A stretch of DNA of 52,651 nt from an uncultured Bacillales bacterium (lineage in GTDB: Bacteria; Bacillota_I; Bacilli_A; RF39; UBA660), in assembly GCA_947168625.1 (NCBI GenBank), contig CAMVMQ010000002.1, forward strand, positions 1 through 52,651. The letters are read 5' to 3'. The position numbers and the translations under genes were made by a program. Below are positions 6,039-42,998 of this stretch, piece by piece. Numbering within the stretch: the first letter of the stretch is position 1; each line of letters opens with the position of its first letter. Below the pieces are notes generated by a model. That model was not told where the DNA came from, searched no databases, and worked only from the letters and a program-made list of their open reading frames with translations.

Positions 6039-7400
6039 ATGAATACAGAAGTTCTTTGGAATAATTTTCTTGATAAAATAAAAGAACGCATATCCCCTTT
6101 ATCTTATGATACATGGTTTAAAGATACTAAGCTACATAGTATTGATAATGGATTAGCTACTATAATAGTTCCTATGGGACTTCATAAAAAGCATTTGGAA
6201 GAAAACTATTTAGACGACATTGAGGAAGTATTTAATGCAATTACGGGTACTAATTTTTCTTTCACTTTCAAATTAGAAAATGAACTGGATAATAAAGAAG
6301 CGTGTAATATTGATAATTTGTCAACAGAAACTGTTGGTGTACCTTTTCAAAGTAGTGTTTTAGCAAATCTGAATGATAAATATACTTTTGATAATTTTAT
6401 GGTTGGTGACTCTAATAGATTTGCCTTTACTGCTGCTAGAGCGGTAGCAGAAAAACCTGGTAAAGCATATAATCCACTATTTTTATATGGTAATAGTGGT
6501 CTTGGTAAAACACATTTAATGCATGCCATTGGAAATTATATAATAGAAAATTCCAATAAAAAAGTTTTATATGTATCCAGTGAACAATTTGTTAATGATT
6601 ATATTTATGCAGTTAGAAATAATGAGAAAAATAATTTTGAAAAAATTGATTTATTTAAGAGTAAATATCGTAATGTTGATGTTTTGATTATTGATGATAT
6701 TCAATTTTTAGGTTCTGCTACTAAAGGTCAAGAAGAATTTTTTCATACATTTAATGAATTACATGACTCTAATAAACAAATAATTATAGCTTCAGACAGA
6801 TCTGTTGATGATTTAAAGATGCTAGAAGATAGACTTAGAACCCGATTTAATTGGGGACTTACGGCCAATATAACTCCTCCAGATTTCGAGCTGAGGGTTA
6901 GTATTATTAAAAAGAAAATATCACATCAGGAATCTGCTAAAGATATTCCTATTGAAGTTATTGAATACATCGCTAATATTAATGATTCTGATGTAAGACA
7001 ACTTGAGGGAGCTATTACCAGGGTATTTGCTTATGCACTTATGATGAATAAGGGAATTGTTACTCTAGATATTGCTGTGGAAGCTTTAAAAGATCGAGTG
7101 AGTGAGAAGAGTGTCTTTAAGAATGATGTTCATCGAATACAAAGAATTGTTTGTGAATATTTTAAAATTGACATAGAAGAATTAAAGGGAAAAAAGAAAA
7201 GTAAAGATGTCAACTATCCTAGACAAATTGCTATATATTTGTGTAGAGAATTAACAAATGAATCTTTTCCTAAAATGGGGACCTATTTTGGTGGGAGAGA
7301 TCATTCTACAATTATTAGTGCTTACCAAAAAATTAAGAAAGATTTAAAGACTAATAATCAACTACAAACAGTTATCTCAGAATTAAAAAATAGAATATAG
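6039..7400 (+). CDS. dnaA: chromosomal replication initiator protein DnaA
   Basis: Walker A GNSGLGKTHL, IIDDIQFL box, C-terminal DNA-binding region (YPRQIAIYLCRELT, FGGRDHSTIISAYQKI). SD GGTAGGGAGG sits about 8 nt before ATG 6039. The ORF track TTG 6033 is less likely. Confidence 0.97.
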   Translation: MNTEVLWNNFLDKIKERISPLSYDTWFKDTKLHSIDNGLATIIVPMGLHKKHLEENYLDDIEEVFNAITGTNFSFTFKLENELDNKEACNIDNLSTETVGVPFQSSVLANLNDKYTFDNFMVGDSNRFAFTAARAVAEKPGKAYNPLFLYGNSGLGKTHLMHAIGNYIIENSNKKVLYVSSEQFVNDYIYAVRNNEKNNFEKIDLFKSKYRNVDVLIIDDIQFLGSATKGQEEFFHTFNELHDSNKQIIIASDRSVDDLKMLEDRLRTRFNWGLTANITPPDFELRVSIIKKKISHQESAKDIPIEVIEYIANINDSDVRQLEGAITRVFAYALMMNKGIVTLDIAVEALKDRVSEKSVFKNDVHRIQRIVCEYFKIDIEELKGKKKSKDVNYPRQIAIYLCRELTNESFPKMGTYFGGRDHSTIISAYQKIKKDLKTNNQLQTVISELKNRI

Positions 7401-7513
7401 TGGATAAAAATGTAAATATCCACAGGTGTTGTTGATAAAAAAATGGTGTAAAATAAGACTTTACTTAAGATTTACACACTATCAACAGTATAATAATAAT
7501 AATTAATAAAAAA
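7399..7513. promoter_or_regulatory. oriC downstream half: DnaA boxes plus AT-rich putative unwinding region
   Basis: AGTGGATAA 7399, ATATCCACA 7416, TGTTGATAA 7430, CTATCAACA 7479. These are followed by GTATAATAATAATAATTAATAAAAAA, which contains a (TAA)4 run. Position between dnaA and dnaN matches the Bacillus incC. Confidence 0.65.
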
Positions 7514-7528
7514 GGAAGGATGATAAAA

Positions 7529-8644
7529 ATGAAATTTATTGTAAAGAAAGAAATATTATTAGAAAGTTTAACTAATACATCAAAAGCAATTTCTACGAGG
7601 AATTTAATACCAATTCTAACTGGTATTAAATTTGATTTAAAAAAAGATGGACTATATTTATATGCTAGTGATACTGATGTATCAATAAGAACATATATAC
7701 CTACGGAAAAGCTTACTAGTTTTGATGAAGAGGGTAGTGTTGTAATTGGTGGTAAGTATATTGTTGAAATAATCAGAAAATTACCGGATGTTGACATTAC
7801 GATAGAAGTAATAGATGGGTATAAAATGATAGTTAGTACAAGTAATACAGAATTTGTTTTAAATGGTATTGACCCTAATGAATTTCCTAATTTGGATTTA
7901 GATGAAACTAAAGAACCTATTCTTATAAATGTTGGCTTGTTCAAGGAAATAATTAATCAGACTGTTTTTGCAATTTCGCAAAATGAAACTAGACCATTAC
8001 TTACTGGTGTTAGCTTTAATTTTAATGATAATAAGCTTGAAGTAATAGCTACAGATTCTTATAGGCTTGCTCAAAAAGTTGTAGATATTGATCATAATAT
8101 TGATAATGAAGTAAATTTAGTTATCCCAGGTAAGAATTTAATAGAACTAATTAAAATGCTTGATGATGAAAATGAAAATGTTGAATTACATTTATTTAAT
8201 AATAAAGTATTATTTAAATATAAAAGTTTGGTCTTTTTAACAAGACTATTAAGTGGTACTTATCCGACAAGTTCAAATGTTATACCTAGTGAATTTGATA
8301 TAGAATTTGAGTGTTCTTTTATGGATTTATATAGTATGATTGATAGGGCTTCTCTTTTGACTTCTGATAGAGAAAAAAATACTATTAATCTATCACTTGC
8401 AAAAAAGGAACTTATTATATCTTCTAATTCTCCTGAAATCGGTAAAGTTGAGGAGAAAATGAGTATAGATTATGATAAAGAAATAAATATTTCATTTAGT
8501 TCAAAATTTATGTTAGAGGCTATTAAAAGCTTTAATAAGGATAAAATAATGCTTTGTATGAATAATGATATTTCTCCTATTATTATTCGAAATAAAGAAG
8601 ATAATACGCTTACTCAATTAGTACTTCCAATAAAAACTAATTAA
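7529..8644 (+). CDS. dnaN: DNA polymerase III beta sliding clamp
   Basis: Position after dnaA, 371 aa, N-terminus MKFIVKKEILLESL, three-domain length, C-terminal LVLPIK. AAGGAAGG SD favours ATG 7529 over ATG 7520. Confidence 0.95.
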   Translation: MKFIVKKEILLESLTNTSKAISTRNLIPILTGIKFDLKKDGLYLYASDTDVSIRTYIPTEKLTSFDEEGSVVIGGKYIVEIIRKLPDVDITIEVIDGYKMIVSTSNTEFVLNGIDPNEFPNLDLDETKEPILINVGLFKEIINQTVFAISQNETRPLLTGVSFNFNDNKLEVIATDSYRLAQKVVDIDHNIDNEVNLVIPGKNLIELIKMLDDENENVELHLFNNKVLFKYKSLVFLTRLLSGTYPTSSNVIPSEFDIEFECSFMDLYSMIDRASLLTSDREKNTINLSLAKKELIISSNSPEIGKVEEKMSIDYDKEINISFSSKFMLEAIKSFNKDKIMLCMNNDISPIIIRNKEDNTLTQLVLPIKTN

Positions 8645-8651
8645 TTAAAAG

Positions 8652-8671
8652 ACTGCAAAATGCAGTTTTTT
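8652..8671 (+). terminator. rho-independent terminator after dnaN
   Basis: ACTGCA-AAA-TGCAGT hairpin plus T run. Confidence 0.6.
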
Positions 8672-8678
8672 CTTTTAT

Positions 8679-8705
8679 TTCGACAAAATTCGACATTTTT
8701 TGACA
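8679..8705 (+). promoter_or_regulatory. three direct TT(C)GACA repeats in 10-bp register upstream of the ComK-like gene
   Basis: TTCGACA 8679, TTCGACA 8689, TTGACA 8700. GACA recurs at exactly 10-bp spacing. The last copy could double as a -35 element. Confidence 0.35.
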
Positions 8706-8747
8706 TTATTTTGTGGTTTAATAGCTGTCAAGAAAGGGGGGAGGTAA

Positions 8748-9209
8748 ATGCAAGATTATATTTTGAATACAGATGTGTTATGTTTTACTCAGGATGTTGA
8801 TAATGATAAAAATATTTTGGTTATTGAAAAGAAAAATAAAAATGTTATTAAAATGGATTGCTTTAAATTTTTAAAAAGAAGTTGTAGTTACTATGGTCAT
8901 TCATATAAAATGCAGAGACAATTTGTTATCGACATTTTCAATTATTATATAAAAACACCTATTATAGTGTCTGAGTATGATATGATTATATTCTTTCCTA
9001 CAGCTAGTCCTAAATCTAAGGAATGTATATGGATTTCTTATAATAATGTCGAGAGATATGTAAAAGAAGATAATTATACTAAAATTTATTTTAAAGGTGG
9101 AAAAATTCTAAATATTAGTACTTCATATAGTACTATCGATCATCAGATTACAAAATGTATTAGGATTGAGAAATTTTTAAATTCAATTAGAGTAAAAAAT
9201 TATAGCTAA
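8748..9209 (+). CDS. ComK-family (competence transcription factor-like) protein, C-terminally short
   Basis: It aligns by eye to the B. subtilis ComK core: RSCSYYGHSY vs RSCRFFGSSY, KTPIIVS vs KPPIMVD, IIFFPTASPKSKECIWIS vs IFLFPTLSSTRPQCGWIS, and a SY..Q motif. Strong SD GGGGGGAGG upstream. Confidence 0.65.
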   Translation: MQDYILNTDVLCFTQDVDNDKNILVIEKKNKNVIKMDCFKFLKRSCSYYGHSYKMQRQFVIDIFNYYIKTPIIVSEYDMIIFFPTASPKSKECIWISYNNVERYVKEDNYTKIYFKGGKILNISTSYSTIDHQITKCIRIEKFLNSIRVKNYS

Positions 9210-9222
9210 TTACTTATTTTAT

Positions 9223-9267
9223 AAGGAAAAAAGATTAAAAAAGTGAGTCTTTTTCCTTTTCTTTTTT
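9223..9267 (+). terminator. rho-independent terminator after the ComK-like gene
   Basis: AAGGAAAAAAGA...TCTTTTTCCTT hairpin followed by T-rich tail. Confidence 0.55.
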
Positions 9268-9349
9268 ATGAATATATGATATAATTTATATGTATAGGAG
9301 TACATAAACTATAAAAAGGTGATGATATGGGCAAGAAAATGATGTTTAA

Positions 9350-10453
9350 ATGCAAATCAGAAATATTAAATTAAAAAATTATCGAAATTATGATAATATT
9401 GAAGTCGATTTTGGCAACAAATTAAATATTATTATAGGCAATAATGCTCAAGGAAAAACTAATTTATTAGAGTCAATTTATGTACTTGCTGTTACAAAGT
9501 CTTTTTTGTCTGTAAAAGAAAAAGATTTAGTTAATTTTAATGAAAAATTTGCTAGAATTAGTGGAATTATTGCTAATAATACTAGGAGCGATTGTAAGCT
9601 TGATATTATTTTTAGTGATAAGGGGAAAATGGTTAAGGTTAATGATAAAGAAGTAAAAAAATTAAGCAAATATATCTCTATTGTTAATGTTATTATATTT
9701 AGCGCAGAAAATATATGGATATTTAAAGATAGTCCTTCGACTAGAAGGAGATATTTTAATATGCAAATTAGTCAGATAAGTAATGTTTATTTAAAATATT
9801 TAAGTGATTATAATGATTTACTTAGACAGAGAAATGAATTTTTGAAATTAATTAATGTGAATAAGCAGAGTGATAATTATTATTTGGATATTTTGGATGA
9901 AAAATATTCTTCTTTTTCTGTTGAGGTTTTTAAATATCGAAAAAAGTATATTAACGATATTAATGAATATTTAGATGAAATGTATAAAAAGATAACTGGT
10001 GACTCTGGTTTAAAGCTTATTTATCACACAGATGTTATTTCAGATAAGGATATTTTTTTAGAAAAGATTAAAAAAAATTATAGTAAGGAAATATTACATA
10101 AAATGACTTTAGAAGGACCAAACAGAGATGATTTCTATTTTATACTTAATGGAAAAAACCTATCATTGTTTGGAAGTCAAGGTCAGATTAGAAGTGCTGT
10201 TTTAGCTCTTAAATTATCTGAAGTAAAATTATTTAATAAGATTACTGGGGATACCCCAATTCTTCTTTTAGATGATATTTTTAGTGAGTTAGATATTGAT
10301 AAGAAAAATAATCTTCTTAGCTCAATTAGAGATGATGTTCAAACAATAGTTACGACTACTGACATAGATAATATTGCAGAAAATATTCGAAAAAATGCTA
10401 ATATATATAAAATTGATAATGGAAGAATTGTTTTACAAAATTTAAATAATTAA
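9350..10453 (+). CDS. recF: DNA replication and repair protein RecF
   Basis: MQIRNIKLKNYRNY N-terminus, Walker A GNNAQGKTNLLE, Walker B LLLDDIFSELD. An in-frame TAA at 9347 prevents upstream extension. Confidence 0.93.
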   Translation: MQIRNIKLKNYRNYDNIEVDFGNKLNIIIGNNAQGKTNLLESIYVLAVTKSFLSVKEKDLVNFNEKFARISGIIANNTRSDCKLDIIFSDKGKMVKVNDKEVKKLSKYISIVNVIIFSAENIWIFKDSPSTRRRYFNMQISQISNVYLKYLSDYNDLLRQRNEFLKLINVNKQSDNYYLDILDEKYSSFSVEVFKYRKKYINDINEYLDEMYKKITGDSGLKLIYHTDVISDKDIFLEKIKKNYSKEILHKMTLEGPNRDDFYFILNGKNLSLFGSQGQIRSAVLALKLSEVKLFNKITGDTPILLLDDIFSELDIDKKNNLLSSIRDDVQTIVTTTDIDNIAENIRKNANIYKIDNGRIVLQNLNN

Positions 10454-10467
10454 GGATGGTGATTTAG

Positions 10468-12393
10468 ATGAATAATAATAATCAAGAACATTATGATGCA
10501 TCAGATATTCAGGTTTTAGAAGGACTTGAAGCTGTAAGAAAAAGACCAGGTATGTATATTGGTACTACTGATATTAAAGGATTACATCATTTGGTATGGG
10601 AGATAGTTGATAATGCTATTGATGAATCTTTAGCTGGATTTTGTAATAATATTGAGGTTATTATAAACAAGGATAATTCAATTACAGTAAAGGATGATGG
10701 TAGGGGAATTCCGACTGAAATACATCCTAAGACAGGTTTATCAACGGTCGAAACTGTTTATACTGTACTTCATGCTGGTGGTAAATTCGGTGGTGGTGGA
10801 TATAAGGTATCTGGTGGTCTTCATGGTGTTGGTGCATCTGTAGTTAATGCCTTAAGTAGTTGGGTTGAGGTTAAAGTTTACAAAAATGGTGTTGTCAATT
10901 ATATAAGATTTGAAAATGGTGGCCATACTGTTGAGCCACTTCATGTAATTGATAAATGTGATATAAATCGTACTGGAACGGTTGTTACGTTTAAACCAGA
11001 CCCTGAAATATTTGATACGGATATATATGATTATAATACTTTAAAGGTTAGAATAAGAGAACTCGCTTTTCTAAATAGGGGTTTATCAATAACAATTAGA
11101 GATGATCGTGACGAAGAAGATACAACGGGTGAAACTTTCTTATATGAGGGTGGAATAAGCGAATATGTGAGATTTATTAATAAAGAAAAAACTCCAATTC
11201 ATGAAGATATAATTCACTTTGAAGGTGAAGAAGATGGTGTTTATCTTGAGGTTGCTATGCAATATAATACGAGCTATAATGATAATATATATTCATTTGT
11301 TAATAATATTAATACGCATGATGGTGGAACTCATGAAGAAGGGGTTAGAAGAGCTTTAACTAGAACTATTAATAATTATGCAAAGAAGTTTAATATGTTA
11401 AAAGATAAGGATGATTCTTTAACTGGTGATGATGTTAAGGAAGGTCTTACAATGATCATTTCTTGTAAACATCCAAACCCTCAATTTGAAGGGCAAACTA
11501 AGGGTAGACTTGGTAATTCAGAAGTTAGAAAACTTGCAGATAGTATTTTTTCTCAGGGATTTGAACGTTTTTTGATGGAGAATCCGGAAGAAGCTAAACT
11601 TATAATTGGTAAAGCGATGCTTGCTTGCAGGGCAAGAAATGCTGCGAGAAAGGCAAGGGAAATAACCAGAAAAAGTGAGATGGCCACTAGTAATTTCTTT
11701 GGTAAATTATCTGATTGTAAAAGTAAAGATCCTAAAGTATCTGAGATATTTATTGTAGAGGGAGATAGTGCTGGTGGCTCTGCTAAAAAAGGTAGAGATT
11801 CTATGACTCAAGCTATACTTCCATTAAGAGGAAAAATACTTAATGTAGAAAAAGCAAGACTTGATAGAGCTCTTTCAAATGAGGAAATTAGGACTATTAT
11901 TACTGCATTTGGAACAGGTATTGGCGAGGAATTTGATTTATCTAAATTAAGATATGATAAAATTATAATTATGACTGATGCAGATGTTGATGGATCACAT
12001 ATTAGGGTATTATTGTTAACTTTATTCTATCGTTTCTTTAAACCAATAGTAGAAGCTGGTCATGTCTATGCAGCTCAACCACCATTATTCTGTATAAAAC
12101 ATGGTAAGACTATTAAGTATGTTTTAAATGAACAGGCAAGAGATGAATATTTATCTACTCTTAATGCCAATGTTAAATATGATATCTTTCGTATGAAAGG
12201 TTTAGGAGAAATGGATGCTGAGGAACTTAACGAGACAACTATGGATATTAATAAGAGAGTTTTAAGAAAAATAACTGTTGATGATTGTGTAGCTGCCGAT
12301 GCTATTTTTGAAAAGCTTATGGGGGATGAAGTAGAACCTAGAAGAAAGTTTATTGAAGAAAATGCTGTTTATGCGCAGAATCTAGATGTATAG
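10468..12393 (+). CDS. gyrB: DNA gyrase subunit B
   Basis: GHKL motifs ([31 protein letters not shown]), [45 protein letters not shown]. Confidence 0.98.
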
Positions 12394-14966: not shown

Positions 14967-15131
14967 TTTTTGTTACACAAACATTTGTTTGTGTAATTCT
15001 TTCTTTGCAATTAATTGCTTTATTTTGTATTTTATTGTATATTTTTATTGATACAACATTACTTTATGGAATCAAGTCAGGGATGGAAATCAGCAGCTTT
15101 AACATATAAGTTTTGTGTGTATCTTTTTTTA

Positions 15132-15147
15132 TGTTCCACGTGGAACA
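15132..15147. promoter_or_regulatory. parS-type site 1 (TGTTCCACGTGGAACA)
   Basis: Perfect 16-bp palindrome (18 bp with flanking A/T). 15/16 match to parS consensus TGTTNCACGTGAAACA. Confidence 0.8.
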
Positions 15148-15234
15148 TCGTTTGATTTCAATATGGTTATTATTTATTAAAATATTTTGTTGTTGATAGA
15201 GTTAGTTTCAATTTATAATTTTTTATTTAATTAA

Positions 15235-15250
15235 TGTTCCACGTGGAACA
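15235..15250. promoter_or_regulatory. parS-type site 2 (TGTTCCACGTGGAACA)
   Basis: Identical 18-mer ATGTTCCACGTGGAACAT. Confidence 0.8.
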
Positions 15251-15389
15251 TATACCGTAATTTAATTTATTCAATGTTTTTTTCTTGTTGATAGGTTATA
15301 AATTTACAATTTTATTATTAAAACAAATTAGATGTAAATCATACTATATATAAAGTAAATATTGGAATTAGGTTTTTATCTATTACTCA

Positions 15390-15405
15390 TGTTTCACGTG
15401 GAACA
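15390..15405. promoter_or_regulatory. parS-type site 3 (TGTTTCACGTGGAACA)
   Basis: One half-site is TGTTTCAC, as in the canonical parS. It is embedded in the 34-bp near-palindrome TATTACTCATGTTTCACGTGGAACATGAGTAATA (15381..15414). Confidence 0.8.
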
Positions 15406-15490
15406 TGAGTAATACTTTTATTTATCATTATTTTAATTAGTTAAATTTTTAATTTGTTGATAACTTTATATTTATATATTTATTTTATTA

Positions 15491-15506
15491 TGTTCCACGT
15501 GGAACG
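15491..15506. promoter_or_regulatory. parS-type site 4 (TGTTCCACGTGGAACG)
   Basis: One outer mismatch. It is embedded in the 28-bp near-palindrome TTATTATGTTCCACGTGGAACGTAATAA. Confidence 0.7.
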
Positions 15507-15633
15507 TAATAAAAAATTATGTATTTAATTGTATTTTAATAGTTGTGTTGTAATGTTGAATAATTAATTATTAGTATAGTGAAGCTTTTTTAAATTATAT
15601 TGATAGATTTTTTTTATTATGTTACTATTTTCA

Positions 15634-15649
15634 TGTTCCACGTGGAACA
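15634..15649. promoter_or_regulatory. parS-type site 5 (TGTTCCACGTGGAACA)
   Basis: Centre of the perfect 34-bp palindrome CTATTTTCATGTTCCACGTGGAACATGAAAATAG (15625..15658), ending at the tadA SD. Position verified against the ORF-track frame. Confidence 0.8.
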
Positions 15650-15669
15650 TGAAAATAGGTGGTTATTTT

Positions 15670-25900: not shown

Positions 25901-26225
25901 TGAAGATAGATTTGGTAGAGTTACTGATGAGATGGTTATTTATATGCATGAGGAGTGGTTTGAAAAACAGGCTAAGATTCTTGGTGTTAAGGAATCTAAA
26001 CAGTCTAAGAACTTTATAGAAGTAGTTCTTCCGATACTTACTTCATCTAAAATTGATGGAGAAAAGTTATTCTTTGATGCTTATGATATTAATAAGAACT
26101 TTAAGTTTTCTTATAAAGATAAAAAGATTCATATTATTTTAGATATTACTAAAAATGAGAAACATTTTATTTATTATTTAAATGAATTATTTGATAAGAT
26201 TATTAAAGAAATAGAAAAGAATTAG
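22914..26225 (+). CDS. mfd: transcription-repair coupling factor
   Basis: UvrB-homology N-terminus, CarD-like segment (GDYIVHIDHGIG), SF2 helicase motifs GDVGYGKTEVA and IIDEEQRFG, TRG region. AGGAGG SD precedes ATG 22914. Confidence 0.96.
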   Translation: MAFFDGLFDINSKNDYSVTGLNKELNSIYIYDYFCKYKRNILVFCNSLYEANDIYNRISCYTDRVLFFPMDDFIASEATSISPEFMIERLSTLNKLCDDDKYIVVTNMTGMLRYLPSKELYKSKFIKLSKSDSIDRDKFINDLYELGYENVPLVSKSGEMAIRGYVIDIFPIGEESPVRIEFWGDDIDSIKYFDLDTQLSNEELNSIDIYPFTEFLIDKKIDDNVNRKQKYLLNYSSDVDGLWGYLDDAIVVYYDYNQIVTSYSLLRETILGYDEEVNDSIKTNYMYDINDIKVNDVIYMMDIDNLVDKKIKSYSYLSFNIDNYAGNFERIKSDLDKYLLKGKTIILCIDKKQVVKRIVSYLDINDDVILTNENEIIKGKINIINKYITNGFMYEDYVVISVNDLFGKIEEKKKSKNKFRVGTKISNIDNLVKGDYIVHIDHGIGIYGELCSLTKNGLKKDYIKLIYADGDVLYLPVEKIDKISKFSASDGALVRLDSLSSDNWEKKKARVRKKLESIAGDLMKLSVEREMAKGYAFSADDENQIMFESKFQYEPTSDQIRATEIIKKAMESDKPMDMLLCGDVGYGKTEVAFRAIFKAINDGKQVAYLCPTTILSNQQYNSALERFSDVPVNIALLNRFTSVKKQNEIYSKLKEGKIDILFGTHKLLNDKVDFKDLGLLIIDEEQRFGVVHKEKIKRYKNNIDVLTLSATPIPRTLQMSMSGVRGLALIETPPEKRRPIQTYVIPENKNIIKDAIYKELSRDGQVFMLCNNIDKLDSRISFINDIVPEAKVRYAHGRMSKEDIEDVMNDFINHEFDILLCTTIIETGIDIPNVNTLIILDADRFGLSQLYQIRGRIGRSDRIGYAYLMYDNRKELNDLAVKRLNTIKEFTELGSGFKIAMRDLSIRGAGDILGSEQSGFIDSIGIDLYLKMLKEEVDKLKGIKVEEEDTNIKPLIEVETHITNEYAPDDEIKIEIHKMINDINSEEDIINLKNVLEDRFGRVTDEMVIYMHEEWFEKQAKILGVKESKQSKNFIEVVLPILTSSKIDGEKLFFDAYDINKNFKFSYKDKKIHIILDITKNEKHFIYYLNELFDKIIKEIEKN

Positions 26226-26252
26226 AGATAATATTTATCTTTAATTTTTTTT
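26149..26252 (+). repeat. direct repeat copy 1: authentic mfd 3' end plus terminator
   Basis: About 104 nt, repeated at 26971..27075 with about 3 mismatches. Confidence 0.9.
26226..26252 (+). terminator. weak AT-rich terminator after mfd
   Basis: AGATAA-TAT-TTATCT hairpin followed by TTAATTTTTTTT. Confidence 0.4.
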
Positions 26253-26309
26253 GGTAACCGCTAGCGCTACCCGAAACAATAAATTGTTTCTCCATAGTCT
26301 TGTAGTTGG
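26253..26309 (-). repeat. structured intergenic element, copy A1
   Basis: GGTAACCGCTAGCGCTACCCG, hairpin GAAACAA/TTGTTTC, then CTCCATAGTCTTGTAG. It is the inverted homologue of 28540..28606. Strand assignment is arbitrary. Confidence 0.7.
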
Positions 26310-26419
26310 AATAAACATTTAGTTAGATGTAATGCTATATATAAAGATTAAATTGTAATAAAATGCTTTTAATTATTTTTGTGATATGATAAAATTAAGG
26401 TAGGAAGGAGTTTAGAAAA

Positions 26420-26941
26420 ATGGAAAATATTGAAAAGGAGAATAAAAGACTTAAAGTATTACTTGTTATTTTAGTAGTTATTTTATTGGGATTAGGTTGT
26501 TATCACTATTATGTTACATTTGTTAATGTTGACAAGTGTGACAGTAAAGTGAATGAAAAACAAGATGACAATTTGTCTTATGAAGAGGTATCAGGATATT
26601 ATACAGCTGAAATACAAGAGAATAGTACTAACAAAACTTCTTATTCATTATATTTATATGATAATGGGACATTTTCATTTACCTGGTCCTACATGGCACC
26701 TGTTGGCTTTATTGGTAATTATACTATAAAAGGAAATCAAATTATTTTAAATCCTTTATATGATACTAATAGTGGTGCAAGTAAGTCAAAAACAAAAAAT
26801 GTAACTACAATATTGACTGTTAATCAAGATAAAACTATTGATACGGATGGTTATAATTTTAGAGGAATAACATTAAAAAAATCTAGTGATGGATTAACAG
26901 AAAATCAATTTGATCATTATTTTAATTATGATGAAGAATAA
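26420..26941 (+). CDS. membrane-anchored hypothetical protein (cassette A)
   Basis: SD GGAAGGAG. Short Lys/Glu-rich N-terminus, then one hydrophobic helix (VLLVILVVILLGLGCY) and a 130-aa extracytoplasmic Ser/Thr/Asn-rich domain. Confidence 0.7.
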   Translation: MENIEKENKRLKVLLVILVVILLGLGCYHYYVTFVNVDKCDSKVNEKQDDNLSYEEVSGYYTAEIQENSTNKTSYSLYLYDNGTFSFTWSYMAPVGFIGNYTIKGNQIILNPLYDTNSGASKSKTKNVTTILTVNQDKTIDTDGYNFRGITLKKSSDGLTENQFDHYFNYDEE

Positions 26942-26970
26942 TAAGTTTATAATAAAATGAATATTTTTAA

Positions 26971-27075
26971 CTAAAAATGAGAAACATTTTATTTGTTATT
27001 TAAATGAATCGTTTGATAAGATTATTAAAGAAATAGAAAAGAATTAGAGATAATATTTATCTTTAATTTTTTTTT
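26971..27075 (+). repeat. direct repeat copy 2: duplicated, non-functional mfd 3' end fragment plus terminator
   Basis: Matches the last ~24 codons of mfd (KNEKHFI.YLNE..DKIIKEIEKN*) and its terminator. No upstream mfd reading frame. Confidence 0.9.
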
Positions 27076-27077
27076 AG

Positions 27078-27135
27078 TTTACCGCTATCGCTAACTCATT
27101 AGCTAAAGCTAATTCGCGGAAAGTCTTCTATTAGA
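27078..27135 (-). repeat. structured intergenic element, copy A2 (diverged)
   Basis: TTTACCGCTATCGCTAA, hairpin ATTAGC/GCTAAT, then GAAAGTCTTCTATTAG. Same position relative to the mfd-end repeat as copy A1. Confidence 0.6.
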
Positions 27136-27234
27136 TGATTTCATTATAAATAGTTGATGCTGAATATATTGAATGATAATGATTGAAAATAATTAAGTAT
27201 TATGCTATATTTATTGTAGAAAGGAGTTTAGAAA

Positions 27235-27837
27235 ATGGAAAAAGAAAAAAGTTATAAAGGATTAATAGTTGTATTATTTGTATTAGTAGTTGTTTTAGGA
27301 GCTTTGTGTCTGTTGTTTGCTACAGGGACTATTAGTTTGAAAGGTGATGAACCACAAGTACCAGTAGAAAATAATGCTAATAACAATGAAACATCTAATG
27401 TTTCTCAAACTGAAGAAGATAGTTTACCAGAATGGGCTGAATATTTGTTAACTCATAATATTAGCCAAATCGCAGTTTATAACCGTAACGTTCCAAAAAC
27501 TTTTGAACCTGGAGATAGTTGTCCTGATCCTGAATACTTAACAAATGGTCAATTTAAATCTGTTTTGAAAGAAATGGTAAAATTTAAATTATCAAAATAT
27601 GTAGATGCTTCTGGTTTTGGTGGCGTTTGTATGAAAAGAATAATTGTAACGTATGATGGCACTAAAAAATTTGAATTGTTATTAAATAAATATATTATAA
27701 CTGACGATAGTAAAATTGAGTCATTACTTGAAAAAGAAAATTATACTGAAAACAGTTCAATGAAAGGAAAAGAAACTAATAAAGATATGTTTGCATATGA
27801 ATGGGATGAATCATATTTAGATAATTTATTAGGATAA
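27235..27837 (+). CDS. membrane-anchored hypothetical protein (cassette B)
   Basis: Same SD/leader (AAAGGAGTTTAGAAAATGGAAAA) and same type of N-terminal anchor (LIVVLFVLVVVLGALCLLF) as cassette A. The ectodomain is unrelated. Confidence 0.7.
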   Translation: MEKEKSYKGLIVVLFVLVVVLGALCLLFATGTISLKGDEPQVPVENNANNNETSNVSQTEEDSLPEWAEYLLTHNISQIAVYNRNVPKTFEPGDSCPDPEYLTNGQFKSVLKEMVKFKLSKYVDASGFGGVCMKRIIVTYDGTKKFELLLNKYIITDDSKIESLLEKENYTENSSMKGKETNKDMFAYEWDESYLDNLLG

Positions 27838-27971
27838 TTAATTAAAATTAATATCGTTAATTGTGATATTGATTTTTTAGTTTGAGTAGTATCTTTAATT
27901 TTTTTATATTATTTGTATAAATATTTAGTTATATGGAAGAATATAAAAGAGAAAGTTAAAGGTGATATTAA

Positions 27972-28502
27972 TTGAAGACTACTGGTGTTATTAGAAGAAT
28001 TGATGAGCTAGGTAGAATTGTTATTCCTAAAGAGATTAGAAAGAATCTTAGAATTAAGAATGGTGAAAGTTTAGAAGTATTTGTAGAAGGAGATTCTATT
28101 GTATTAAAAAAATATTCTCAGTTAGAGAATATAGAGAGTGTATCTGTTGATTATGTAGAAGCTTTTAATCAGATTATTAAACATAATATTATTGTTACGG
28201 ATAGAGATAAAGTTATTGCAGTAGCAGGTCCTTTAAAGAAGAAATATTTAGGTAAAGAAATTAATGAATTTACTGAGAGAAGTATTGATAGGAGAGACTC
28301 TTTTTCGGAAAAGCAAAAGAAGATGTTTAGTGTGATTAAGGATGAAGAAGATAATGGTTATTATACTTTTACATCGATTGTGGATAATGGGGATGCTATT
28401 GGTAGTGTTATTATTATTAGTACGGATACTCCTATTACAGATGTTGAAGATAAGATGGGAATTATTTTATCTAAATTACTTAGTAAACAATTCATAGATT
28501 AA
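27972..28502 (+). CDS. spoVT: stage V sporulation protein T (AbrB/SpoVT N-domain plus C-terminal sensor-like domain)
   Basis: TGVIRRIDELGRIVIPKEIRKNLRI swapped-hairpin motif. 176 aa, as for SpoVT. Neighbour of mfd as in Bacillus. AAAGGTGA SD precedes TTG 27972. Confidence 0.85.
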   Translation: MKTTGVIRRIDELGRIVIPKEIRKNLRIKNGESLEVFVEGDSIVLKKYSQLENIESVSVDYVEAFNQIIKHNIIVTDRDKVIAVAGPLKKKYLGKEINEFTERSIDRRDSFSEKQKKMFSVIKDEEDNGYYTFTSIVDNGDAIGSVIIISTDTPITDVEDKMGIILSKLLSKQFID

Positions 28503-28519
28503 AGTCTATGATTTTTTTT

Positions 28520-28550
28520 CTATCAACAATACCTGTTGATAGAAGATTTT
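28520..28550 (+). terminator. spoVT terminator hairpin made of two inverted DnaA-box-like 9-mers
   Basis: CTATCAACA-ATACC-TGTTGATAG followed by AAGATTTTT. Confidence 0.5.
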
Positions 28551-28606
28551 TCTAATACTGGGTTATGGAGAAGTAACTTGTTACTTCGGGTAGCGAAGCG
28601 GTTAAA
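28540..28606 (+). repeat. structured intergenic element, copy B1
   Basis: TAGAAGA...TATGGAG, hairpin GAAGTAA/TTACTTC, then GGGTAGCGAAGCGGTTAAA. Inverted relative to copies A1 and A2. Confidence 0.7.
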
Positions 28607-28617
28607 TAAAAAAAGTA

Positions 28618-28646: not shown

Positions 28647-28652
28647 CTTGTT

Positions 28653-28858
28653 GTAAAGCGATGAAGGAAAGAGTAATTACTTAGTATTTTATAGAGAGTC
28701 TATGATGGTGGAAAATAGATAGTGAAAGGTATTATAAATGGTTCTGGAGCTGTTATATCTAATAGGTGTAAACGGTAGCGCGTTATAGCTTAATGAGTTA
28801 AAGAAGTAAGGTGGTACCACGGATATATTTCGTCCTTTGTGTTACTATCTTTTTTTTT
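28653..28858 (+). promoter_or_regulatory. T-box riboswitch leader, probable Met specifier
   Basis: Stem I elements (AGCGATGA, AGAGAG, GGTGGAAA distal loop, CTGGAGC), candidate specifier AUG at 28738..28740, and T-box sequence AAGTAAGGTGGTACCACGG at 28804..28822. Terminator GTACCACGGA/TTTGTGTTAC plus T9 at 28814..28858. Confidence 0.8.
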
Positions 28859-35620: not shown

Positions 35621-35647
35621 TAAAAAAAAAGATTTTATGCAAATCTT
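35621..35647 (-). terminator. terminator of the minus-strand 500-aa gene
   Basis: On the minus strand, AAGATTT-GCATA-AAATCTT is followed by T9. It overlaps the stop codon. Confidence 0.55.
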
Positions 35648-37137
35648 CTTCCTCCTTTGTGGGCATTTTCAGTTAGTTCTTCAAAAAAATCTTTTTCAAA
35701 TACCTCATCACTTATAAGTAAGTCTTGATTCCTTTTACACATGTTAGGATATGTGTCTTTTGGATTATCTTCTTTTTTTATGAATGCTCCTATTATGGCA
35801 TATTCATTGTCTTTTATGTTTTTATATATTATTCTTATTTGATCATCTCTTATTTCAGAATAACCACGTACTTTGTTTGATTCGGTCAATTCTTTTGACT
35901 GTGATGGCATTAGTTTTCCTTTTTTAAATAATACTAAAAGTTCTCTTAATCCGTTATATGCATCTTTTGGAAATGATTGAGATTTTACATCATCTGATAA
36001 GTATGGCCTACCCGATGGCTTTACACAGTAAAATAATTTATTAACATCTTGATCATCTTGTATTCTTTTATATTCTTCATAATATTTTGCTAATTCTGTA
36101 TCCATAACTTTTCTGATGGTAAGATAATTTTTAATTGTTTCTTTATACATTTCTACTAATGTAATACGGTCTTCTTTATTGCTGTAATTATTATAATTCT
36201 GTAGTTCTTCTTGTTCATCAAGTAAATCGTTTTGGTATATTTTTAGAAGAGTAATATAGAAATATTTTATTTCACTAATTGTGTAATTATTGTCAAATGA
36301 TAGATCTCCGTTATATTTTGGAAGCATATCAATTGTTATCTCATCTATTCCTTGCTCTCTAATTATTTGTATTAGTTCTTTTAATTCTTTTTTTCTTTCA
36401 TTATCAATCCAGGATATATCATTGAATTTTTCGTATCCCATTTCAACAATATTTATTATGCGATCTTTTTTATTTGAATCAATTTTTGAATTATTATAAT
36501 ATACAGTGTTGTTATGATTATGTAGGTGTTCAAATAAAATAATTTTTTCTTTATCAGAAAGATGTTTTCTATCAAATAGTTTTTCAAGCAGTGAAAAATG
36601 ATAGGCAGTTACTAGTGTTTCTTCTCTCTTTTTAAACTTACAATTTCCTTTGTATTTTTTCCATATATAATAGTTATGCTTTAAATTGTCTGCTATTTCC
36701 TTATATACGTTAATTTCTTTTTCTGTCACTTCTGGCATTAATGAAAGCAATTTTGCATTTTCTTTTATTAGTTCATTCTCAAATAGTTTTTTTATTTTTT
36801 CTATATATTTTTTTTGTTTTTCATATTCTTTTTCGTCATATTTTTTTGGATTTATATTATAATTTTGGCAAATCGTATTTGCTTTTAATACTTTGTCAGA
36901 TATTGTTTGTGCTGCTTTTTCATTTGAACCTAAAAACATTTTAATTACCATATCAACTAATATAAAGTTGTCATCAATCCTTGTGTAATCGTTTGTTTCC
37001 AATAATGAAATAGTGTCTTTAATTAAATTAATATCTGATTTTTTTAGTTTTTGTTCTTGCTGTTTACTGTAGTAATTTTCAATCTCTATTTCAAGTAGAT
37101 TAATAATTGCCTCTAAATTTAATTCTTTTAGTTCCAT
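35635..37137 (-). CDS. hypothetical 500-aa protein: long Lys/Glu-rich helical N-region plus RelE/ParE(Gp49/HigB)-like C-terminal module
   Basis: The C-terminal ~110 aa show a toxin-fold pattern (FYCVKPSGRPYLSDDV..., KELTESNKVRGYSEIRDDQIRIIYKNIKDNEYAIIGAFIKKED) resembling the L.G..ELR.GDYRIIY....I.I..F.KK signature. AGGAAG sits 6 nt before ATG 37137. No domain recognised in residues 1-370. Confidence 0.6.
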   Translation of the reverse strand: MELKELNLEAIINLLEIEIENYYSKQQEQKLKKSDINLIKDTISLLETNDYTRIDDNFILVDMVIKMFLGSNEKAAQTISDKVLKANTICQNYNINPKKYDEKEYEKQKKYIEKIKKLFENELIKENAKLLSLMPEVTEKEINVYKEIADNLKHNYYIWKKYKGNCKFKKREETLVTAYHFSLLEKLFDRKHLSDKEKIILFEHLHNHNNTVYYNNSKIDSNKKDRIINIVEMGYEKFNDISWIDNERKKELKELIQIIREQGIDEITIDMLPKYNGDLSFDNNYTISEIKYFYITLLKIYQNDLLDEQEELQNYNNYSNKEDRITLVEMYKETIKNYLTIRKVMDTELAKYYEEYKRIQDDQDVNKLFYCVKPSGRPYLSDDVKSQSFPKDAYNGLRELLVLFKKGKLMPSQSKELTESNKVRGYSEIRDDQIRIIYKNIKDNEYAIIGAFIKKEDNPKDTYPNMCKRNQDLLISDEVFEKDFFEELTENAHKGGRRFA

Positions 37138-37157
37138 TAACATCTTCCTTTCTATTT

Positions 37158-42854: not shown

Positions 42855-42904
42855 GAACTTTAATGAAGTTCTTTTTCTATATATTTAAAATTAATATTAT
42901 AATT

Positions 42905-42998
42905 ACTGGTTATTTTAAGTAGAAGACTATGGAGGATTAACTTGTTAATCCGGGTTTAACTATAAATTAAAGATTTTTTAGGAAAAAGTCTTTTTTTT
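42905..42998 (+). ncRNA. putative ~90-nt small RNA containing element B2
   Basis: TATAAT at 42897..42902, then the element, then an 11-bp hairpin AAAGATTTTTT-AGG-AAAAAGTCTTT plus T5 (42969..42998). It sits between two terminated genes. The -35 is weak. Confidence 0.3.
42919..42960 (+). repeat. structured intergenic element, copy B2 (lacks the AGCG..GCGG segment)
   Basis: GTAGAAGACTATGGAG, hairpin GGATTAA/TTAATCC, then GGGTTTAAC. Confidence 0.65.

Follow-up and report, generated by a model that had tools for sequence, protein, structure and literature searches.

A 52,651-nt stretch of DNA from an uncultured Bacillales bacterium (Bacilli_A; RF39; UBA660; assembly GCA_947168625.1, contig CAMVMQ010000002.1, positions 1 to 52,651; hereafter the window) contains four copies of a short intergenic element in which a hairpin splits a sequence resembling the start of a tRNA-Tyr gene. 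The element is a real repeat family that was not previously described. Our preferred reading, tentative and short of probable, is that the four sequences are copies of a lineage-specific DNA repeat, comparable to repetitive extragenic palindromes (REPs) or miniature inverted-repeat transposable elements (MITEs) and derived from the 5′ end of a tRNA-Tyr gene. The evidence supports a real and new repeat family, and all functional readings of it are tentative.

A preliminary description, made from the letters of the window alone, had reported the four copies. All were present at essentially the same coordinates when the window was searched by pattern match and with a covariance model (R1, built from a 21-copy alignment that is alignable over ~80 columns):

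26247..26327, minus strand: copy C1, type 1 (R1 82.3 bits), directly 3′ of the mfd terminator T-run
27071..27153, minus strand: copy C2, type 2, a diverged subtype (R1 33.9 bits)
28533..28612, plus strand: copy C3 (R1 93 bits), between the spoVT terminator and the promoter of the dut-metG T-box leader
42897..42973, plus strand: copy C4 (R1 66.5 bits), upstream of clpC

While R1 recovered all four, the pattern TATGGAG-N16-CGGGT had exactly three matches in the window, at 26269–26296 (−), 28564–28591 (+) and 42928–42955 (+), and none in 100 dinucleotide-preserving shuffles of it. In each of the three, N16 together with its flanking G and C forms a 7-bp stem with a 4-nt loop. The hairpins are GAAACAA-TTTA-TTGTTTC in C1 (26273–26290, 3′ box GGGTAGCGCTAGCGGTTACC), GAAGTAA-CTTG-TTACTTC in C3 (28570–28587, 3′ box GGGTAGCGAAGCGGTTAAA) and GGATTAA-CTTG-TTAATCC in C4 (42934–42951), and C2 reads TTTCCGCG-ATTAGC..GCTAAT-GAGTTAGCGATAGCGG, with the hairpin ATTAGC(T)/(A)GCTAAT. 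The stems GAAACAA/TTGTTTC, GAAGTAA/TTACTTC, GGATTAA/TTAATCC and ATTAGC/GCTAAT had all been quoted correctly, and the copies are intergenic and near terminators, as described. The formula said to be shared by the copies holds overall but needs correction in each of them. C1 reads TACAAGAC, where TAGAAGAC had been given in error; in C2, TATGGAG is replaced by TTTCCGCG and CGGGTAGCG by GAGTTAGCG; in C3, the TAGAAGA found 17 nt upstream of TATGGAG belongs to the spoVT terminator, as the 3′ arm of its stem; and the 3′ box of C4 is truncated through loss of AGCGAAGCGG, the full box being kept in its orthologues in L132 and L146 (L numbers denote the related loci). The conserved element also exceeds the length first described: it measures ~80 nt, and some copies reach ~110 nt.

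The family extends beyond the window. An exact-protein look-up with SpoVT returned 10 rumen-metagenome loci with an identical SpoVT, the same gene order and ~5–7% nucleotide difference. A metagenome scan with the 19-mer CGGGTAGCGAAGCGGTTAA gave 17 stretches, 14 of them at 24–29% GC, and in 14/14 of the low-GC stretches GGAG and a perfect or near-perfect hairpin stand directly upstream of the 19-mer. R1 had 34 matches, in at least 13 intergenic regions, giving ~30 copies beyond the window's four. The model recovered all copies and picked up weaker ones as well: four in a 2.2-kb part of L137, a further three in L139, and those of type 2. The related low-GC sequence sampled comes to ~0.4 Mb, mostly picked for carrying a copy or flanking spoVT. 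Orthologues of C1 occupy the identical site in L001, L002, L131 and L155; near-identical counterparts of C2 lie at 9234–9316 in L001 and at 6363–6445 and 7100–7182 in L139, the L139 pair having the compensated stem ATTAAC/GTTAAT; and orthologues of C3 with the stem GGATTAA/TTAATCC are found in L001, L002, L131, L139, L142, L153 and L155.

Wider searches returned little else. The pattern TATGGAG-N{14,18}-CGGGTAGCG listed at least 119 stretches in genome contigs, among which one (L098) is a real copy and nearly all others are chance matches in unrelated high-GC genomes; a viral contig scan and blastn searches against plasmids and phages gave no match to the element. No Rfam family covers any copy at gathering scores, and at E ≤ 10 there were only chance-level matches (P31, 17 bits; FsrA, 14 bits; snR39, 12 bits). 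In the literature, the exact 3′ box string gave one unrelated primer-like match and keyword searches gave no description of such an element. The element departs from the defining features of tRNAs, REPs, MITEs, attC sites, IS605 ends and Rfam families. The preliminary description had named a lack of further copies, a lack of covariation and a match to an Rfam or insertion sequence (IS) end family as outcomes that would speak against a repeated, structured element. None of these came about: further copies exist and the hairpin covaries, and that central claim stands.

The 5′ part of the element is weakly conserved, with a TATAAT-like box and TTCT..TAGAAGA(C) in many copies. It is followed by GGAG (CCGCG in the type-2 subfamily), a hairpin of 7–8 bp with a loop of 2–4 nt, and a 3′ part of the form GGGTAGCG-A/CT/AT-AGCGGTTAA(A), after which A-rich sequence usually comes next. 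The 3′ boxes of types 1 and 2 show a 1-nt difference (GCG-A-AGCGG vs GCG-CT/AT-AGCGG). A C3-type copy at 2199–2283 of L155 reads GCGAAGCGAAGCGG, with one extra AAGCG pentamer. The 3′ box thus acts as a slippage-prone, short tandem repeat of (T/A)AGCG. The 1046-nt contig L133, with a copy at 974–1046, stops exactly at the last base of the 3′ box (...GCGGTTAA), which could be an assembly break caused by the multi-copy repeat. A short open reading frame (ORF) running from the hairpin loop (TTG/ATG, then LIRVAKRL...) was rejected: several copies lack a start codon, the stop is not conserved, and the reading frame changes with a 1-nt indel in the 3′ box. Several known motifs were likewise dropped, each being missing in some copies: a DnaA box (TTATCCAG at the 5′ tip), sigma-B and sigma-54 motifs, a rolling-circle nick site (CTTG in the loop) and the d(GCGAAGC) mini-hairpin.

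RNAalifold predicted one helix only, the 7–8 bp hairpin, with compensatory changes in five of its eight pairs. In the 30-row model alignment, pairing is intact in 97.8% of cells. Changes on both sides affect 36 cells, against 9.9 expected from shuffles, and 0/500 shuffles reached the observed count. This signal collapses when the partner is slid by 1–3 columns, and at least nine distinct, perfectly paired stems occur across the family. An all-against-all column scan for extra helices or pseudoknots found no second run of nested covarying pairs, and the balance of G-T and A-C pairs (one G-T on the forward strand, no A-C) was uninformative as to the strand of function. The stem of C3 is GAAGTAA/TTACTTC in the window vs GGATTAA/TTAATCC elsewhere, in strains that differ by ~5–7% overall, and the type-2 stem is ATTAGC/GCTAAT in some strains and ATTAAC/GTTAAT in others. 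Whole stem variants that separate orthologous copies recur at other loci, and part of the covariation is therefore a product of swapping by gene conversion, not of independent compensatory mutations. The variants are set apart by compensated changes at four or five positions of the stem, so selection has probably acted on the pairing itself, whether as single-stranded DNA or as RNA.

The preliminary description had likened the 3′ box to the start of tRNA-Tyr genes, and this likeness proved sound. ARAGORN calls tRNA-Tyr(GTA) on stretches from Staphylococcus, Listeria and Enterococcus, where the genes begin with GGAGGGGTAGCGAAGTGGCTAAA or a close variant; these stretches were reached by querying a phage collection with a Bacillus tRNA-Tyr sequence, and the matched records are annotated as tRNA-Tyr. 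After deletion of the 17-nt hairpin GATTAACTTGTTAATCC, which leaves GGAG|GGGTAGCGAAGCGGTTAAA, the element matches the first 23 bases of the three tRNA-Tyr genes at 21/23, 20/23 and 19/23 positions, and nine other tRNAs in the fetched loci match it at no more than 15/23. The same alignment bears out the remark that the hairpin separates GGAG from GGGTAGCG. The likeness stops in the D-loop, with A-rich sequence after it (...GGTTAAA), and the element has no 3′ strand of the D-stem, no anticodon arm and no T arm. As had been expected, no full tRNA was found: ARAGORN called none in the window, nor over any copy in the 16 related loci searched, and a 96-nt stretch gave no match to the Rfam tRNA model even at E ≤ 10. 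Many copies have the TATAAT-like box 23 nt upstream of GGAG; stand-alone tRNA genes of the clade have TATAAT 13–15 nt before the mature 5′ end, in a promoter of the form TTGAnT-17-TATAAT. The 23-base match and the upstream TATAAT box make the head of a tRNA-Tyr gene the most likely source of the element. Its origin would be the promoter-proximal 5′ end of the gene (positions 1–23), with a 17-nt palindrome inserted between bases 4 and 5.

Copies of the element were found after mfd and ileS, before the metG T-box, clpC, lon and rpsF, in three regions of L137 that lie between a hydrogenase gene and glyA, and beside AAA_14/DUF4143, DUF3800, NUDIX and methyltransferase genes. They occur in either orientation and have no fixed relation to neighbouring gene starts. 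Some are paired tail to tail or grouped in arrays; L137 has four copies in 2.2 kb, and L139 has three plus one. A run of A7–8 is present at the 3′ tip in about half of the loci, and in several of these it is the complement of the terminator T-run of a converging gene. No transposase, integrase, reverse transcriptase or REP-associated tyrosine transposase (RAYT) gene adjoins any copy in the window or the fetched loci.

Conservation of the copies is uneven. The clpC copy is kept with a near-consensus core in L132 and L146, where ClpC is ~79–80% identical to that of the window and the flank upstream of the copy cannot be aligned with it. Other copies decay through G-to-A changes or deletions (C3 in L002 and L153, C4 in the window): in C3 of L002–L010, CCAGTAAGCAAAGCAG stands for CGGGTAGCGAAGCGG, and in L153 most of the 3′ box of C3 is gone. 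C3 differs by 7.5–9% from its counterparts in L131 and L142. Between the window and L131 or L001, spoVT differs at 26/531 sites and the proteins are identical, hence all of these changes are synonymous. In distant relatives, with SpoVT 82–88% identical to that of the window and, in four of them, an Mfd tail ~47% identical in an ungapped end-anchored comparison, R1 had no match in 20-kb syntenic loci (mfd-spoVT-metG). Because the family is absent from these distant loci, kept at clpC and decaying elsewhere, it appears to be restricted to one clade, at least as old as a genus, and partly constrained.

The interval between mfd and spoVT is where the element meets strain-variable genes. In the window it is arranged as follows:

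26148..26252, plus strand: mfd tail (last ~78 nt) with terminator hairpin and T-run, first copy of a 105-nt direct repeat
26420..26941, plus strand: cassette ORF A, 173 aa, N-terminal membrane anchor, without a Pfam family
26970..27074, plus strand: second copy of the mfd tail and terminator, 3′ of ORF A and directly 5′ of C2
27235..27837, plus strand: cassette ORF B, 200 aa, membrane anchor, without a Pfam family
27972..28502, plus strand: spoVT, AbrB-type N-terminal domain and SpoVT_C (Pfam PF04014, PF15714)
28516..28546, plus strand: spoVT terminator hairpin (terminator scan: 13 pairs, then a T-run)
28652..28840, plus strand: T-box leader of dut-metG (Rfam RF00230), directly 3′ of C3

Distant relatives have mfd followed directly by spoVT, or in one case by a single unrelated gene, without any element. 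The element-bearing clade has one, two or three genes in this interval, mostly without Pfam families:

L002–L010: 175 aa (counterpart of ORF A and the sole cassette there)
L131: 193 aa
Window (26330–27960): 173 and 200 aa
L001 (interval 6990–10000): 513/134 and 170 aa
L139 (6345–9030): 180, 170 and 324 aa, the last radical-SAM-like
L153: 178 aa
L155: a 163-aa gene directly upstream of spoVT, the contig being cut before the gene on the other side

The first 10 related loci examined lack ORF B between mfd and spoVT. Neighbouring genes in the interval are partly paralogous (173/200 aa; 180/170 aa). The three 170-aa family members with readable context (L001, L139 and L153) are placed between mfd and spoVT and a fourth, in L155, directly upstream of spoVT, and the 170-aa gene takes different positions in the arrays of L001 and L139. 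The 170–180 aa family has nine relatives in a database of 5.8 billion proteins, and the 513-aa gene of L001 is disrupted and resembles leucine-rich repeat proteins. Each unit consists of an element (antisense), a promoter, an ORF and the shared terminator, and the last unit ends at the T-run, abutting the spoVT promoter. spoVT itself is a native gene and not cargo, since it adjoins mfd in relatives without the element at this locus (L147–L151).

A repeat search of the window showed that 26148–26252 and 26970–27074 are a 105-nt direct repeat with 97% identity, and comparison with L002 showed that the second copy joins the 3′ flank of ORF A at a common ACTAAAAA motif. This 105-nt copy of the mfd tail, joined at the ACTAAAAA microhomology, is a footprint of homologous or illegitimate recombination between alleles and not of a site-specific event, and it is evidence that unequal or allelic recombination built the cassette array. 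The interval as a whole behaves like a hot spot of the minimal mobile element type, in which the repeat and the terminator would serve as junction homology.

We propose that the element reached many intergenic positions in the ancestor of a single clade of uncultured rumen and gut low-GC Bacilli, lying in either orientation and by preference beside terminator T-runs. Copies would then have been homogenised and shuffled through ectopic recombination or gene conversion. The hairpin would be the one feature under structural selection, presumably read in single-stranded DNA or in a transcript by the machinery that propagates or binds the element. Element copies and the shared terminator may in this way provide portable homology at the junctions of strain-variable orphan genes, chiefly between mfd and spoVT. 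The occurrence in either orientation, the arrays, the decay and the stem variants common to several loci argue for repeat DNA rather than a fixed regulatory site. The family, its anatomy, the covarying hairpin, the likeness to tRNA-Tyr, the distribution and the lack of inversion are observed, and the way the element spread, its descent from a tRNA gene and its part in recombination are inferred. Among the four roles suggested in the preliminary description, a REP-like element and a tRNA-derived relic fit best; a small RNA fits less well, as the copies lack a conserved −35 and terminator, and an att-like site has a low probability.

A number of observations weigh against a mobile repeat of tRNA origin. 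No terminal inverted repeats, target-site duplication or adjacent transposase, RAYT or integrase were seen, and the element's mobility is read from dispersal alone, the empty sites (L147–L152) being too diverged for comparison. The copy count stems only from the ~0.4 Mb sample chosen largely for a copy or a spoVT flank, and the derivation rests on tRNA-Tyr genes of other Firmicutes, not on this lineage's own. The near-consensus clpC copy kept across ~20% nucleotide divergence points to a host function at some loci, and the perfect 19-mer at more than 10 loci hints at the same, in a set selected by that 19-mer.

Comparison with known systems shows partial likeness to several of them. REPs, which are mobilised by RAYT transposases, and the bacterial interspersed mosaic elements (BIMEs) built from them are also short intergenic repeats that lie after genes and by terminators, in either orientation and sometimes as alternating pairs. 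They too have an imperfect palindrome kept by compensatory changes and conserved bases beside the hairpin, including a GTAG, here within CGGGTAGCG. However, the palindrome makes up only ~20 of the 80–110 nt of our element, which has a long non-palindromic tRNA-like box; the GTAG lies 3 nt 3′ of the hairpin on the forward strand, vs 5′ in REPs; the copy number is probably in the tens and not the hundreds, by our estimate; and no RAYT (Y1 transposase) gene is among the annotated neighbours of the copies. Like MITEs and similar repeats (Correia in Neisseria, RUP and BOX in Streptococcus, bcr1 in the Bacillus cereus group), the family is lineage-specific, non-coding, ~100 bp long and dispersed between genes, is partly kept at orthologous sites and may carry promoter-like boxes and hairpins. 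Its tips (~TTATCCAG at the 5′ and GCGGTTAAAT at the 3′ end) differ from those of MITEs in having no convincing inverted repeat, no direct repeats were seen at the flanks, where boundaries are inexact, and no parent IS was identified. The IS200/IS605 type of end was rejected, as there is one hairpin only and the bases next to the tips are T-rich without a fixed tetranucleotide; the ends of the resident IS605-family TnpB element (L143, 9222–10337, the only one found in the clade) are unrelated.

Integron attC sites, and attC clusters without an integrase, resemble the element in that structure is conserved over stem sequence, with one site per single-gene cassette, strain-dependent arrays of mostly orphan genes and solitary sites elsewhere. 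The differences are that there is no IntI and there are no R″/R′ cores at both ends; the 3′ tip of C3 does end in GTTAAAT, in line with the GTTRRRY core, yet its counterpart (RYYYAAC) is missing at the opposite end and other copies differ. The element also lies 5′ of each gene and antisense to it, the cassettes have their own promoters and terminators, and the array junctions bear the marks of homologous or illegitimate recombination. A parallel for the locus is found in the minimal mobile elements of Neisseria, with their neisserial intergenic mosaic element (NIME)/dRS3 repeats: there, as between mfd and spoVT, a fixed interval holds strain-specific whole-gene cassettes with short repeats at their borders, and cassette exchange is attributed to homologous recombination, although the phylum is different and the repeat sequence unrelated. 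Finally, the tRNA gene fragments that integrating elements leave behind and the tRNA-derived short interspersed nuclear elements (SINEs) of eukaryotes share the partial tRNA (acceptor 5′ strand, D-stem 5′ strand and D-loop, or 'box A') and, often, an A-rich tail. The element differs from these in being a 5′ and not a 3′ fragment, multi-copy away from tRNA genes and interrupted by a hairpin, with no integrase or reverse transcriptase nearby. An RNA-mediated copy is disfavoured because conservation extends upstream of any plausible transcription start.

That the copies are small RNA genes is doubtful, though it is the alternative to which we give most weight. Each would yield an RNA of 70–100 nt, read in the GGAG-to-GGTTAA direction from the TATAAT-like box, with one hairpin between G-rich single-stranded boxes akin to the 5′ half of a tRNA. 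This RNA would either work in trans, through pairing or the titration of a tRNA-binding protein, or be antisense to the 3′ ends of converging genes. A covarying helix between conserved unpaired flanks is the usual pattern of a functional RNA, the TATAAT-like box is at a fixed distance in the E2, L130, L137 and C4 copies, and the position of copies is independent of neighbouring genes, as in paralogous small RNA genes. Conservation of the clpC copy between species, the good hairpin and U8 after C4 in the window, the bidirectional terminators into which the C1, C2, L137 and L141 copies run and the forward-strand G-T pair are also in keeping with a small RNA. Yet there is no conserved −35, unlike in the tRNA promoters of the clade, nor a conserved terminator, the hairpin 3′ of C4 being missing in L132 and L146. 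C3 has a terminator stem at the expected −10 position and the T-box promoter directly 3′ of it, scans for sigma-70 promoters and terminators found them no more often than in shuffles, single copies fold with weak z-scores (−0.7 to −2.0) and several copies are decaying. A cassette recombination site like attC, whose hairpin and boxes would be read by a recombinase encoded elsewhere, for the insertion, excision or reshuffling of single-gene cassettes in the mfd-spoVT hot spot and at other loci, we consider unlikely. It would explain why the mfd-spoVT interval holds 0, 1, 2 or 3 unrelated and mostly orphan genes depending on the strain, each with one element 5′ and the same terminator 3′, why the array position of the 170-aa gene differs between L001 and L139, and why genes in L137 are each flanked by elements. 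Structure kept while the stem sequence varies, as in attC, and the identical 3′ box of the L001 element types, which diverge exactly at the hairpin side, can be read likewise. But no integrase or recombinase was found in the window or any fetched locus, the last cassette stops at the terminator T-run without an element remnant, and the 105-nt mfd-tail copy at a microhomology indicates homologous or illegitimate recombination. The partly paralogous neighbours suggest tandem duplication, the 170-aa family is tied to one locus (L001, L139, L153 and L155), and many copies stand alone beside core genes. A full integron-like cassette system in low-GC Firmicutes, with a folded tRNA-Tyr-derived site and its recombinase elsewhere in the genome, seems to us quite unlikely; integrons are, to our knowledge, not found in low-GC Firmicutes.

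We think it very unlikely that the copies are leftover attachment-site fragments, that is scars (attL/attR or secondary sites) from past integrations of the neighbouring accessory genes by small integrative elements that target the 5′ end of tRNA-Tyr and carry a copy of it. Such scars would account for the 21/23 identity to tRNA-Tyr positions 1–23 and for the orphan or accessory genes (DUF3800, AAA_14/DUF4143 and genes without Pfam families) that adjoin several copies, and integrating elements are known to give rise to partial copies of tRNA genes (PMC9897764). Against this, neither a tRNA-Tyr gene nor an integrase is near any copy, the clpC, lon, rpsF, ileS and glyA copies have no adjoining island, and all copies have the same hairpin insertion and truncation point, which indicates one progenitor and not repeated tRNA integrations. 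Elements with tRNA-targeting integrases also normally duplicate the 3′ part of the gene, not the 5′ part. Least credible by far is the suggestion that the copies at 26253 and 28606 bracket an invertible or composite-transposon-like segment holding the two cassettes and spoVT. C1 (−) and C3 (+) are indeed inverted and 2.3 kb apart, and the same (−,+) geometry is seen around genes in L137. However, the order of mfd, cassettes, spoVT and then a plus-strand copy has one orientation in all 19 related contigs (L001–L010 with three similar places, L131, L139, L153 with one similar place, and L155), no direct repeats flank C1 and C3, and there is no invertase gene. The adjacency of mfd and spoVT is ancestral, being present in relatives without the element at this locus, and predates the element there. 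C1 and C2 belong to a local array, into which recombination carried the 105-nt copy of the mfd tail.

Should the element prove to be a selfish or recombinogenic repeat, the few structured interspersed repeats known from Firmicutes would gain a new and oddly built family, a bacterial repeat whose conserved core is the head of a tRNA gene split by a hairpin. If it is instead transcribed or a recombinase target, it would represent a new family of tRNA-mimic small RNAs or a new cassette system. It also marks a hot spot of strain-variable genes beside the replication origin of an abundant uncultured rumen and gut lineage, which is useful for strain typing and for explaining assembly breaks.

The window itself is the origin-proximal region of a Firmicute with a GC content of 25–30%. 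Judged by ORF sizes and order, its left part would carry dnaN, gyrB and gyrA, after which come the signal recognition particle (SRP) RNA, dnaX, recR, mfd, spoVT, the T-box with dut-metG, lysS and clpC. The T-box of dut-metG scored 92.4 bits (E = 3e-20) against the RF00230 gathering score of 93, and is missed at the default Rfam threshold because it falls just under it. The 75-aa gene before C4 gave no record in an exact-protein look-up, and C4 is therefore compared across species only. A 502-aa ORF at 35635–37143 (−), between mreB and rpiB and without a Pfam family, is missing from L001 and split in two in L008, and is therefore another strain-variable insertion; no element copy was found adjoining it.

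Just 3′ of the SRP RNA (15045–15131), the palindrome ATGTTCCACGTGGAACAT occurs in 4–5 copies in non-coding sequence at 15111–15650. It resembles the Firmicute parS consensus (TGTTNCACGTGAAACA), and the copies would be an origin-proximal parS cluster. In L143, the TnpB gene (OrfB_IS605 and Cas12f1-like TNB domain; 9222–10337, minus strand) lies between tRNA-Cys and tRNA-Gln. Within 8960–10610 of this contig, 14 nt of the T arm of tRNA-Cys (CAAATCCGACTGGG) recur inverted just past the 3′ end of TnpB, and this inverted CAAATCCGACTGGG could be a guide or target flank of the TnpB element.

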